Below are positions 2,788 to 43,196 of a stretch of DNA of 64,000 nucleotides, piece after piece. Numbering within the stretch: position 1 is the first letter of the stretch; the number at the start of each line of letters is the position of its first letter. The position numbers and the translations under genes were made by a program. The notes under the pieces are model-generated. The model was not told the origin of the DNA. It was given only the letters and a program-made list of their open reading frames with translations, and did no database searches. The stretch comes from Candidatus Kaiserbacteria bacterium RIFCSPHIGHO2_01_FULL_46_22 (GTDB lineage: Bacteria; Patescibacteriota; Minisyncoccia; Phycocordibacterales; UBA918): NCBI GenBank assembly GCA_001779595.1, contig MFKO01000002.1:22279-86278 (forward strand), written 5' to 3'.

Positions 2788-3396
2788 TCAAATCCTGGAA
2801 TGCTCTAAGTAACTCAGAAATTTCTTATATTCTGGAGATGTACGCGACCACGGGAAGTAGTAAACGCCGTTTAGTAGGCAGTAGTCCGCCTTTCCTTGGC
2901 CGACATTTACCAGCACCGCGGTCCTGATAGTTGCGCCTTGAAGCGCTTCACGGCCAACCTCAAGTGTCAGACCTTTTGCTACAGCATCGTCTACGAGTAG
3001 TACCCGTTTGCCTTGGATGAACAGTCTGCTTGATTCACTTAGCCCCTTCTGCAAAACAGGTTTGGTAAACCTAAAAAGTATCCACCGAACTGCCAGTCTG
3101 AGAATAGACGGAAGTCTATTAATAAAGGGCATGTTGTAGATATCTCTGCAGACGTAGATGCTTAGGTGGGGGAGGCCTAATATTCTTGATATTTTTTCGC
3201 CTACGTATCGTCCACCGGTATCAATGCTTACGATGCATTCTGGCTCAAAGGTCTCGGTTGCGTAAGCAAGAGCCTTGCAGAGCGAATCGACTTTGAGAAA
3301 CGTAAGTTGTTTACTTCGAAACAACAACATGGACCCGCTCCTTTCTAACGAGAACTGACTAAGACATAAAATGTCACTCTGCCTTAAGTCTGTCAA
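2788..3396 (-). CDS. Phosphoribosyltransferase (type I PRTase) domain protein
   Basis: VLLVDDAVAKGLTL PRPP-binding-like motif. Confidence 0.5.
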   Translation of the reverse strand: MTDLRQSDILCLSQFSLERSGSMLLFRSKQLTFLKVDSLCKALAYATETFEPECIVSIDTGGRYVGEKISRILGLPHLSIYVCRDIYNMPFINRLPSILRLAVRWILFRFTKPVLQKGLSESSRLFIQGKRVLLVDDAVAKGLTLEVGREALQGATIRTAVLVNVGQGKADYCLLNGVYYFPWSRTSPEYKKFLSYLEHSRI

Positions 3397-5004: not shown

Positions 5005-5928
5005 ATGAAATATCTAGTTATTGCAGTTGTAGTGATCTTAGTTCTCGGTGTGGGAGGGTTCTTTGTCTACAAGAACATCGCCAATCGTGCAGACATGGAG
5101 AATGATCGAGCATTTGAGGAAGCGAAGCCTGATACAGCAGCAGAACAGGAAAAAACAGTGGACGATACCAAAACGGTTATCGGTAAGTCAGCAGACGGAC
5201 ACGAGATAACTGCGTATCACTATGGTAAGGGAGACACGAATCTTCTATTTATCGGTGGTATTCACGGCGGTTACTCATGGAATACCGCTCTCGTTGCATA
5301 CGAACTGATGGAATATCTTGAAAAGACTCCTGATGCTATTCCAGAGAATATGCGCGTGACAGTTATTCCAGTTATGAACCCTGATGGACTTAATACCGTC
5401 GTTGGAACCACAAGCCGCTTCTCTATGGCGGATGTTCCAGAAGAATCGGCAGACACTATACCGGGACGTTTTAACTCGAATGAAGTAGATCTCAACCGAA
5501 ACTTTGATTGTGATTGGCAGGCGGAGAGTAAATGGCAGAACCGCACAGTGAGCGGTGGCAGTGAAGCTTTCTCTGAGCCGGAGAGCAAGGCAGTGCGTGA
5601 CTTTATCGCAACAAGCAGTCCGGATGCTGTAGTGGTTTGGTACAGTTCTGCCGGCGGTGTATTTGCATCAAATTGTCACGATGGTGTATTGGCCGAGACG
5701 ACTGAGTTGACGAGCTTGTATGCGGAAGCTTCTGGATACCGCGCGTTTAAAGAATTTAATTTCTACGAGATCACTGGCGATATGGTGAACTGGATGGCAA
5801 AGCAGGGAATCCCAGCCATCAGCGTGCTCCTCACTACTCACCGCGATGTCGAATGGAACAAGAACCGAGCTGGTATTGAAGCGCTATTCAAACACTATTC
5901 CGATGAATCTGCCGACCTTCCTGAATAA
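5005..5928 (+). CDS. M14-family zinc carboxypeptidase-like protein, membrane-anchored (paralogue 1)
   Basis: N-terminal TM; GGIHGGYSWN, PVMNPDG, EVDLNRNFDCDWQ motifs. Confidence 0.6.
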   Translation: MKYLVIAVVVILVLGVGGFFVYKNIANRADMENDRAFEEAKPDTAAEQEKTVDDTKTVIGKSADGHEITAYHYGKGDTNLLFIGGIHGGYSWNTALVAYELMEYLEKTPDAIPENMRVTVIPVMNPDGLNTVVGTTSRFSMADVPEESADTIPGRFNSNEVDLNRNFDCDWQAESKWQNRTVSGGSEAFSEPESKAVRDFIATSSPDAVVVWYSSAGGVFASNCHDGVLAETTELTSLYAEASGYRAFKEFNFYEITGDMVNWMAKQGIPAISVLLTTHRDVEWNKNRAGIEALFKHYSDESADLPE

Positions 5929-38068: not shown

Positions 38069-38079
38069 GAAAATAAAGA

Positions 38080-38112
38080 AAACCGCCGCATCAGATGCGG
38101 CGGTTTTCTTCG
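38080..38112. terminator. Rho-independent terminator
   Basis: aaccgccgcatc-aga-tgcggcggtt followed by TTCTT. Confidence 0.75.
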
Positions 38113-38510: not shown

Positions 38511-38692
38511 ACGTTTGAAATTAGTTTTTAATATCCGTCACTTATATTTTAATCCTTTCATCACACGAATTATGCTTTCGCAAGTTGGAAAGTGTGCATA
38601 AGTCACGAGTAATTTCATGCACTCTTCATGCTTGTTGCTCATTTAGTGCATGCTAATCTGATAACAGGAAAGAAAATTCAAGGGAGGAGTAG

Positions 38693-39004
38693 ATGATTCA
38701 TGTCTACGTACAAATAATCGATGTGCCTCCCGGCTTTGCTCCGCCGGAAATCAGGGAGCAGTGGAAGAAGATTGTTCTTCCTGTAATTACTGAGAGTGAA
38801 ATGGCGACTAATCCTCCCAATACGAGATACGGGGTGGACGCCGCAAATGTGGGAGGGTTTACAGTGTCTAGACCCAGGGCAGTGGCCGCTTTAACAAAGC
38901 GTGGCAGAAGCGAAGCCGCTGGATTTTGGACAGGATTCCCATTTGGTCCTTATTTGCAGTTCAGGAAAGATGTCTGTCGGGTGATAAGAGTGGTCAGCCG
39001 ATGA
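38693..39004 (+). CDS. Orphan 103-aa protein next to tRNA-Ser
   Basis: GGGAGGAG Shine-Dalgarno immediately upstream; own terminator; no family recognised. Confidence 0.3.
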   Translation: MIHVYVQIIDVPPGFAPPEIREQWKKIVLPVITESEMATNPPNTRYGVDAANVGGFTVSRPRAVAALTKRGRSEAAGFWTGFPFGPYLQFRKDVCRVIRVVSR

Positions 39005-39022
39005 AAGGTCTGCACAAAGTTA

Positions 39023-39056
39023 AAACCGCCGGCAAGCTTACCGGCGGTTTATGTTT
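39023..39056 (+). terminator. Rho-independent terminator
   Basis: aaccgccgg-caagctta-ccggcggtt followed by TTATGTTT. Confidence 0.65.
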
Positions 39057-39057
39057 G

Positions 39058-39072
39058 GCGGAGGGTGAGGGA
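39058..39072 (-). repeat. 15-nt direct copy of the tRNA-Ser 3' end (gcggagggtgaggga)
   Basis: Identical to 39216..39230. Confidence 0.6.
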
Positions 39073-39146
39073 ACTTTTCTCTTACAGAGCAGTACACCTT
39101 TTGGCTAAAATTTTCTTAAAATTAATTTTAGCTCAAAAGGTTTTCA

Positions 39147-39170
39147 AATCCCTCCCGTCTCACTCAAAAT
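39147..39170 (+). repeat. Degenerate inverted fragment resembling the tRNA-Ser T-arm/acceptor (gttttcaaatccctcccgtctcac)
   Basis: 12/12 match to TTCAAATCCCTC of the tRNA in the opposite orientation. Confidence 0.45.
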
Positions 39171-39216
39171 ATAATCACACAAAACTCCAGATGTTCGTTT
39201 TGTGTTCATTATTTTG

Positions 39217-39303
39217 CGGAGGGTGAGGGATTTGAACCCTCGAAGGAGTTTCCCCCTTACCGCCTTTCCAAGGCGGCGCACTAGACCACTATGCGAACCC
39301 TCC
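39217..39303 (-). tRNA. tRNA-Ser (anticodon GGA), type II with long variable arm
   Basis: Reverse complement folds as a cloverleaf: acceptor GGAGGGT/ACCCTCC, anticodon stem CCGCC/GGCGG with loop TTGGAAA, long variable arm, T-arm GGGTTCAAATCCC; CCA not encoded. Confidence 0.8.
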
Positions 39304-39394
39304 TAATGTTGCGGTCGTTATGATAGCGCAAAGTAGTTCCTTTACCAACCTTGAGAAGGGTAGATTCGTTTGTACTCAATGTATAATTTACCTA

Positions 39395-42757: not shown

Positions 42758-42859
42758 ACCCATACACAACGGCCACATTGACACTTTTTAATACTGTAAT
42801 ACTCTGGTTGGTACCAGGCAATAACGCACTGGTAACGCCAACCAAAAAGGAGTTTTTCG

Positions 42860-43003
42860 ATGACCTGGAAAACGCATTTTTCGGCCAACTTCAGCCCCCA
42901 TATCGGCGACACCACTTCTTTGGCCCGCGCGCAGAATTCGCACAGCGTCGCTATCGGCACCGGCGTGTCGGACGGTTCGGTCAAGGACATCTCCAAGAAC
43001 TGA
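42860..43003 (+). CDS. Orphan 47-aa ORF in GC-rich island (MTWKTHFSANFSPHIGDTTSLARAQNSHSVAIGTGVSDGSVKDISKN)
   Basis: AAGGAG, 7-nt spacer, ATG; GC-rich; followed by a second SD-like site (AAAGGGGA, 7 nt, ATG at 43040) and a 21-codon ORF (43040..43105). Confidence 0.3.
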   Translation: MTWKTHFSANFSPHIGDTTSLARAQNSHSVAIGTGVSDGSVKDISKN

Positions 43004-43196
43004 TTCAAGGCCAGGGTCTCCCAGAAAGGGGAAACGCACATGTCTATCCGCAAGGGTATGGTGAGACGATATTCGTCTCAAGGTGATCAGGTTCTTTCTG
43101 TCTGAAATTTTTCAGACTCGAGCACAAAAGGGCGATCGTGAGTTATCTCCGAACGCCCTTTATTATTTTTTTATACCCTCACTTCGGCGAGGTTTT

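Follow-up and report, generated by a model that had tools for sequence, protein, structure and literature searches.

The islands and prophages that tyrosine integrases place in tRNA genes are among the closest described counterparts of the element reported here. As defined in Islander, their footprint consists of a regenerated tRNA gene (tDNA) and a displaced, direct fragment of its own 3' end that starts in the T-stem/T-loop region; a relative carries the empty site, and the fragment still lies on its native flank (PMC4383910). Among integrase footprints, the most frequent class is a 3' fragment that begins at the T-stem region: of 3919 islands, 3760 carry a fragment of the 3' type and 1836 have their crossover in the T-stem region (PMC4383910). 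Here we analyse a stretch of 64 kb (the window; position 1 is its first letter) from an aquifer (groundwater) genome of Candidatus Kaiserbacteria, in which a tRNA-Ser(GGA) gene is flanked on its 3' side by a footprint of this form. The insert that it bounds is only 143 bp long and has no integrase, cargo or recognisable att arms. Unlike the islands, it holds an inverted copy of the target and is conserved between species, not variable or decaying. Cis-mobilisable elements (CIMEs), the att-flanked and integrase-less remnants of integrative elements, offer a second comparison. They too have attL/attR-like bounds and no recombinase of their own, and are in principle mobilisable in trans. However, the known CIMEs are kilobases long, carry genes and have known cognate elements, whereas no cognate element or integrase was seen for our insert. 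We put at about even the chance that it is a gene-less insertion module, which entered across the identity block at the tRNA 3' end and is now the structured trailer of the tRNA.

The tRNA-Ser(GGA) gene is intact, lacks an encoded CCA and lies on the minus strand at 39216-39303 (ARAGORN; Rfam, 57.5 bits). It is the single tRNA of the locus. Its last 15 nt, GCGGAGGGTGAGGGA in plus-strand reading, occur at 39216-39230 and again, exactly and on the same strand, at 39058-39072. These are the only two exact copies in the 64 kb; both positions had been given in the initial annotation. When up to three mismatches are allowed, four matches are found against 0.77 expected, a count to which none of the shuffled sequences got. 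With one mismatch the repeat grows to 19 nt (39054-39072 and 39212-39230), and the identity runs from the last T-loop base and the T-stem 3' strand to the discriminator plus one base. The distal copy, on the minus strand, comprises the T-stem 3' strand, the acceptor 3' strand and GC. In the window it is followed by CAAACAT and, after these 7 nt, by a terminator orthologous to that of the related locus L001. The distal copy reads ACCCTCC-G-CCA both in the window (39054-39060) and in the related locus L014 (2810-2815). The functional tRNA-Ser(GGA) and all its orthologues read G-CA(A/T/C), without an encoded CCA.

The relatives compared with the window included loci L001-L006, L014 and L026-L029. 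L014 comes from a second Kaiserbacteria species and is the same metagenome contig as L022 (Ga0208958_1000551); this locus and the L002 contig were the sole returns of the metagenome scan. L001 and L002 are collinear with the window (HtpX-Fur-TM128-ORF107-tRNA-Ser(GGA)-p188-p217-BipA, where ORF stands for open reading frame and TM128 is a 128-aa membrane protein). They are roughly as far from the window as L014 is, with orthologue identities of 65-96%, and BipA and TM128 put the window and L014 as sisters. The window, L014 and L003 share one tRNA-Ser(GGA) sequence, from which that of L001 departs at 1 nt. The 188-aa protein p188 of the window is 100% identical to a protein that NCBI lists under Candidatus Kaiserbacteria bacterium RIFCSPHIGHO2_01_FULL_46_2….

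L001 and L002 have an empty site, in which ORF107, its terminator, a 46-nt trailer and the tRNA follow one another with no duplicated 15-mer. L014 has the occupied arrangement: the distal 15-mer at 2813-2827, a 144-nt insert at 2828-2971 and the tRNA at 2972-3059. The distal copy is the exact point at which the homology of the window and L014 sets in (39055 and 2810). After the distal copy L014 has CAAGATTCA, which matches AAAGATTCA, the sequence after the tRNA in L001, at 8 of 9 positions. What follows the proximal copy (AAAATAATG...) agrees with the trailer of L001 at only 3 of 9 positions. Because the flank of the distal copy matches the native trailer of L001 and the L001 site is empty, the distal copy appears to be the displaced original 3' end. 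Since this copy keeps the native flank, the present 3' end of the tRNA would have come with the insert.

The locus thus presents an intact tRNA gene with its own 3' fragment in direct orientation and on the side predicted by the fragment type. From its start in the T-stem/T-loop region the fragment extends to the end of the gene, the site is empty in a relative (L001/L002), and the outer flank of the fragment is the native one. An island would also have an integrase gene between tDNA and fragment, and here this 143-nt interval has no conserved ORF. Pfam searches of 37 window ORFs, which include all those within ~20 kb of the tRNA, found no integrase, serine recombinase, Cas1 or GIY-YIG domain, and recombinase domains were also absent from the neighbourhoods in the relatives. 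The initial annotation had likewise seen no integrase. On this evidence the direct repeat probably marks an insertion that regenerated the tRNA gene. Across the locus, five more assemblies from this population show no difference from the window, and a sixth (L020) differs by one single-nucleotide polymorphism (SNP) in the module, at 39103, so the arrangement is not an assembly artefact. The repeats are present in all six and in the second species.

In the proposed insertion, recombination across the block of 15-19 nt between the T-loop/T-stem boundary and the gene end would join the incoming DNA to the tRNA body. The incoming DNA would bring its own copy of the 3' end and thereby regenerate an intact tRNA gene, and the original 3' end, with its native trailer and the terminator of ORF103 (the homologue of ORF107 in the window), would be pushed 158 bp downstream. 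This geometry would be that of integrase-mediated tDNA integration. Once a module is present, homologous exchange could produce the same outcome, with the tRNA body and the 15-nt copy as anchors. Recombination between the two 15-mers would be expected to give an empty-site junction in which the tRNA is directly joined to CAAACATAAACCG, and a circle junction of the form ...GAGAAAAGT-TCCCTCACCCTCCGC-AAAATAATG.... The trailer that would result today reads, in order, a U-tailed hairpin, a P1 domain with two hairpins and the ORF103 terminator.

The insert lies between the copies at 39073-39215 on the minus strand (143 nt, or 158 nt with the 15-nt copy). Aligned with L014 2828-2971 it is identical at 132 of 144 columns (91.7%); the differences are 9 transitions, 2 transversions and 1 indel. 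The tRNA and both 15-mers are 100% identical between the two species. Elsewhere, identity is 48-73% in five other intergenic regions, 47% at 720 four-fold sites and 86% in the bipA DNA. At the rate of the four-fold sites, the binomial probability of so few differences in the insert is ~1e-30. The transition/transversion ratio is 4.5 in the insert (9 versus 2) and 0.93 at four-fold sites (183 versus 196; Fisher p=0.03), and identity is uniform over the stems, loops and junctions. With 92% identity to its counterpart in the second species, against ~47-60% for neutral DNA, the insert is not decaying. The initial annotation regarded the locus as a possible relic of site-specific integration. Insertion into the tRNA 3' end is borne out by the empty site of L001/L002 and the flank homology; decay is contradicted by this identity and by a stable fold in the tRNA sense, and no integrase, cargo or third repeat accompanies the insert. 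The comparison of relatives that it proposed gave a divided answer: the empty site of L001/L002 speaks for an insertion, and the conserved structured module of L014 comes close to what the annotation had counted against one.

The insert is not coding. A 53-aa plus-strand ORF is frameshifted in L014, and in a 21-aa minus-strand ORF, which has no ribosome-binding site, the differences are all non-synonymous. A phage attachment site (attP) that carries the tRNA end was also considered and rejected: the six viral contigs with the 23-mer all carry complete phage tRNA-Ser genes and no partial att sites. ARAGORN finds no second tRNA in the interval. Rfam gives no family above threshold, and its best match, NsiR4 (21.8 bits versus a threshold of 40), is located on the terminator. 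Searches with blastn-short showed no other copy of the insert in the window or among 30 related loci. Viral contigs, scanned three times for exact patterns, gave only chance matches, as did BLAST of phages and plasmids. Dispersed copies, as expected of a miniature inverted-repeat transposable element, are therefore absent from the 64-kb window and the 30 related loci. A covariance model (R1) with three sources, the window, L014 and the variant in L020, found nothing significant beyond these, with a weak match in the L029 trailer (15 bits, E=0.13).

The initial annotation also described an inverted, degenerate fragment of the T-arm and acceptor, and this fragment is real. The inverted copy (39143-39170, plus strand) contains T-loop, T-stem 3' strand and a degenerate acceptor strand. 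Its first 12 nt, TTCAAATCCCTC at 39143-39154, are 100% complementary to 39225-39236, a match that is also kept in L014; from there it is degenerate to ~39168. It forms one arm of a long imperfect palindrome (39143-39236) that includes trailer sequence and has its centre in the loop of a hairpin at 39177-39205. Its arms, of 43 and 40 nt, align perfectly over 12 nt at one end and over 9 nt at the other. This alignment of the palindrome arms explains the pseudo-3'-end TTCAAATCCCTCCCGTCTC, a 19-mer, better than an origin as a fragment of another tRNA, and the 19-mer is absent from the viral contigs.

In the tRNA sense, the 165 nt after the tRNA are predicted to fold into a U-tailed hairpin followed by a closed domain. 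Hairpin A (39171-39212, minus strand) consists of a 9-bp core at 39177-39205 and an outer 5-bp extension, followed by the U-rich UGAUUAUAUUUU; it is the pivot of the long palindrome and, immediately behind the tRNA, a candidate for termination or processing. In L014 its stem has G·U in place of A-U, a change that only the tRNA sense tolerates. The long-range helix P1 pairs the inverted copy (39149-39168) with the distal copy (39054-39072) in the tRNA sense and encloses two further hairpins. Hairpin B (39096-39141, minus strand) has 17 bp, one bulge and an 11-nt loop, and one stem change in L014 gives G·U, again in the tRNA sense only. Hairpin C (39079-39089, minus strand) has the form CUCU-GUA-AGAG and is the same in the window and L014. 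The SNP at 39103 (G in the window, T in L020), 1 of only 3 SNPs between these two assemblies in 4.9 kb, breaks a G-C pair of hairpin B. For the window, the fold reaches -50.6 kcal/mol in the tRNA sense (z -6.1) and -47.2 on the opposite strand (z -5.6); for L014 the values are -47.4 (z -4.8) and -37.9 kcal/mol (z -3.2). Five changes between the window and L014 fall at paired positions, and four of them keep the pair as G·U in the tRNA sense and would be A·C mismatches on the other strand. Among the 52 pairs, compared in two species only, none shows a two-sided change and two are broken, L014 and the L020 variant each accounting for one. The wobble-only changes and the better tRNA-sense fold weakly favour a transcript in the tRNA direction.

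Such a transcript would presumably start with the tRNA at a sigma-70-like promoter just upstream of it (TTGGTA-17-TATCAT, 39320-39348, minus strand), a match to the consensus only; the hexamers are kept in L014 and L001. The trailer may have its analogue in 3'ETS-leuZ of E. coli, a sponge RNA from a tRNA 3' external transcribed spacer (ETS). Both are conserved structured segments directly downstream of a tRNA and are presumably freed in tRNA processing. The two have no relation in sequence or Rfam, and our putative trailer differs in containing the tRNA 3' end twice, once as a direct copy and once in antisense.

Two explanations of the conservation are possible. It may reflect purifying selection on the trailer RNA, acting through tRNA termination or processing or through a small RNA. 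This explanation is favoured by the better tRNA-sense fold and the wobble-only stem changes, and one ancestral insertion suffices, since the window and L014 come out as sisters with BipA and TM128. Alternatively, the module may be younger than the split of the two species and have spread laterally; with tRNA homology on both sides, an integrase may not be needed. The uniform loops and junctions, the unsaturated, transition-rich pattern, the lack of compensatory changes and the stem-breaking SNP favour the younger module.

Several observations weigh against the reading of the insert as an integrated module that now serves as a structured trailer. There is no recombinase in or near the interval and no cargo, and the mechanism is read from the geometry only. 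The module was found in two species, with no other copy anywhere searched. An inverted copy and a long palindrome are not explained by simple integration. Compensatory double substitutions are absent, which leaves the RNA structure a predicted one; the wobble-only pattern was taken from a structure fitted to the same sequences, and transcription of the trailer is a prediction. The uniform conservation and the high proportion of transitions (4.5 against 0.93) fit a younger module at least as well as selection, and of the three population SNPs, one lies in the module, where it disrupts a pair in a stem. Should this reading hold, the footprint of an insertion into a tRNA gene can last as a distinct non-coding module of high conservation and need not erode, here in a phylum whose genomes are tiny and in which few mobile elements are recognised. 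The interest of the locus lies mainly in this unexplained conservation of the insert.

The alternative that fares best is a non-autonomous miniature element that is still mobile, moved by an integrase in trans or by double crossover through the tRNA body and the 15-nt copy, so that its identity between the species reflects recent transfer and not selection. Such an element would account for an identity far above neutral that is uniform, transition-rich and unsaturated, and for the lack of compensatory changes although the genomic divergence is saturated. Its boundaries would lie exactly at the repeats, as they do, with both 15-mers perfect in both species, and it could be present or absent among three roughly equidistant species. 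However, no second copy was found in the window, the related loci or the viral, phage and plasmid collections, and no integrase was seen. The sister relationship of the window and L014 makes a single ancestral insertion enough, and 15 nt is very short for homologous exchange. We regard this alternative as unlikely.

Somewhat less probable again is a local origin without foreign DNA, in which the palindrome grew by strand switching at the trailer hairpin, a short duplication of the tRNA end was added, and the product was retained as a structured trailer or small RNA. The inverted copy as an arm of a long imperfect palindrome with trailer sequence in it would be expected from such a process, and the strong conservation and the stable fold, better in the tRNA sense, agree with its retention. 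The sequence of hairpins B and C (~70 nt), however, has no source elsewhere in the locus, and a direct copy at the far end, on the native trailer, is the outcome of an insertion and not of a local duplication. A long structured trailer also follows tRNA-Ser(GGA) in L029 (1120-1371, minus strand), a more distant relative with a different tRNA-Ser(GGA) sequence type. That trailer is ~240 nt long, highly structured (z -6.0) and ends in a terminator. It contains CUUCUGUAAGAAG, a hairpin (CUUCU-GUA-AGAAG) that resembles hairpin C with one extra base pair. The likeness would suit a local origin, but it is marginal (p ~0.05 for the local similarity; E=0.13 with the covariance model).

A more speculative extension of the insertion reading concerns the whole precursor of 284 nt. 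In its minimum-energy fold, the inverted copy binds the last 21 nt of the tRNA, and it is the distal copy, with CCA after it, that closes the cloverleaf. The inverted copy is thus an anti-T-arm in the tRNA sense and can pair either with the distal copy (P1) or with the tRNA's own 3' end. Because the fold of the whole precursor differs from that of the trailer, the precursor RNA is potentially bistable. Pairing of the anti-T-arm with the displaced 3' end would leave a normal tRNA; pairing with the real 3' end would give a cloverleaf closed by the CCA-bearing distal copy. It is conceivable, as a long shot, that a gene-less element of ~160 nt spreads among Kaiserbacteria through its copy of the tRNA end without a dedicated recombinase, and that its bistable transcript modulates the maturation of the single tRNA-Ser(GGA). 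An element that is mobile without its own recombinase, or that regulates tRNA maturation, would be of a new kind, but this is only a possibility. Patescibacteria also have group I introns within genes for tRNAs, which are ribozymes that interrupt the gene in the anticodon loop at position 35/36 (PMC13011429). They share with our module the phylum and the presence of extra RNA in or beside tRNA genes. The likeness goes further in the precursor minimum-energy fold, in which the 158 nt act as a T-loop insertion and the distal copy as a 3' exon. A group I intron was rejected: the tRNA gene is intact and uninterrupted, the segment is not long enough, and no group I family is matched in Rfam.

The initial annotation suggested that ORF103, which it considered an orphan, could be residual cargo. 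ORF103 (38693-39004, plus strand) encodes a small conserved protein of 103 aa with no function assigned. It is preceded by a strong Shine-Dalgarno sequence, AGGGAGGAG, and ends at a GC-rich hairpin (39023-39050; 14-bp, with 14-nt arms of 93% complementarity) that is orthologous to the terminator of ORF107 in L001, so both of these signals were correctly described. The hairpin has T-runs on both strands and could therefore also end a tRNA-sense read-through transcript. The gene is no orphan, as its homologues form six clusters with 54-70% identity and 40 invariant alignment columns. They come after the HtpX protease and Fur regulator genes in every context recovered (L001/L002, L003-L005 and L006, where CobW and CbiA genes lie ahead of Fur), and the linkage to Fur holds in four lineages. 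A profile search of genome contigs with ORF103 found one distant locus, which does not have the tRNA-Ser(GGA) arrangement. ORF103 lies outside the repeat pair, and its homologue ORF107 is present at the empty site of L001/L002. As a gene outside the repeats that stands beside Fur in relatives, including one without the repeat, ORF103 is not cargo; judged from its position and homologues, it is an ancestral, Fur-linked resident of the locus, a neighbour of the module and no part of it.

A decayed genomic island with att repeats, of which ORF103 would be the last cargo gene, is therefore very improbable. Direct repeats of a tRNA 3' end and a variable slot on the 3' side of the tRNA in the clade are what such an island would show. 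However, ORF103 has the same neighbours in the repeat-free L001 and follows Fur in L003-L006, base composition around the locus is not unusual, and there is no PHROG match. A third repeat, looked for beyond ORF103 and beyond the DUF305 gene that takes its place in L014, was not found, and the interval itself is conserved, not decaying. For annotation, these results mean that short tDNA fragments alone do not delimit islands and that a gene beside a tDNA fragment need not be cargo.

A casposon-like transposon offers a further precedent. In Aciduliprofundum boonei, a casposon at the 3' end of a tRNA-Pro gene is flanked by a 15-bp direct duplication immediately beside the stretch that encodes the T-psi-C loop (PMC5137440). 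Our duplication is also exactly 15 bp and begins right after the T-loop, although length alone is not diagnostic, so it could be a target-site duplication of a transposon later cut to 143 bp. Here, however, the duplication lies wholly inside the tRNA gene, whereas that of A. boonei overlaps the tRNA by 5 bp only (PMC5137440). The termini of the insert are not inverted repeats (in register they match at 10 of 30 positions, and their local score falls short of the mean of the shuffles), and the tested ORFs include no Cas1 or PolB. Casposons are not known from this phylum, and we consider this origin a shade more improbable than the decayed island. Chance, an assembly error or a decayed tandem tRNA gene, for which nothing speaks but the short length of the repeat, can be set aside: an exact 15-mer is expected ~1e-4 times in 128 kb and no shuffle matched the observed count, six independent assemblies agree bar one L020 SNP and the second species has the same arrangement, and ARAGORN and Rfam find no tRNA-like gene in the interval, where identity falls abruptly at the T-loop with no gradual decay.

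The same tRNA gene was struck independently at its 5' side in L001. An 80-aa GIY-YIG gene (5500-5742, minus strand) lies there in an insertion at about tRNA nt 28/29 (region 5406-5830; also in L002, 5329-5750). Upstream of it remain the native promoter and, displaced, a 5' fragment of the gene (tRNA nt 1-28), which holds a 20-nt GC-rich palindrome in the D-loop; downstream, the tRNA has been regenerated intact. The tRNA promoter thus appears to serve the nuclease gene as well. SegB of phage T4 is a free-standing GIY-YIG homing endonuclease in a tRNA gene region (PMC2330249). The L001 gene is similar in being a small GIY-YIG gene lodged in such a region; unlike segB, it lies inside a duplicated 5' segment of the tRNA, behind the tRNA promoter, and no counterpart occurs among the window ORFs tested. 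Together, the 3' hit in the lineage of the window and the 5' hit in the sister lineage of L001 make tRNA-Ser(GGA) a recurrent insertion target in Kaiserbacteria.

The 3' side of the tRNA is variable beyond the module. Relatives with as little as 45% protein identity still share the tRNA-p188-p217-BipA side, whereas the gene on the 3' side differs in almost every lineage. It is ORF103 or its homologue in the window and L001, a DUF305 gene in L014, a gene for a 214-aa protein in L028 (3092-3736), MscS with an AAA_15/AAA_21 ATPase typical of defence genes in L026 (1868-3700), a gene for a 333-aa protein in L027 (2721-3722), and ORF114, a DEAD helicase and GrpB in L003 (5366-7377). No second tDNA fragment was seen in L026, L027, L028 or L003. 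Left of the distal copy the window and L014 are unrelated, the DUF305 gene replacing ORF103 and its terminator. The swapped segment, window 38557-39054 (ORF103 with promoter and terminator) against L014 2252-2809 (L022 3174-3569), lies between the gene of the 128-aa membrane protein and the distal tRNA fragment, and no repeats flank it. The exchange of ORF103 for DUF305, both beside Fur, suggests a swappable metal-related slot.

Further differences and signals lie in the neighbourhood. In L003 (3294-3650; also L004 and L005), a 118-aa gene with 23S_rRNA_IVP / bAvd-like domains stands between DUF2207 and HtpX; it is absent from this position in the window, L001 and L014. A perfect 17-bp hairpin directly after the Fur gene (38076-38110) is common to the convergent membrane-protein gene, and its below-threshold Rfam matches, Thr_leader and rnk_pseudo, are terminator look-alikes only. 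Finally, a segment of ~435 bp in the window (42759-43192), between bipA and a gene for an RluB-like pseudouridine synthase, is absent from L014, where the flanks are contiguous. It opens with a strong terminator hairpin and carries a 47-aa ORF.

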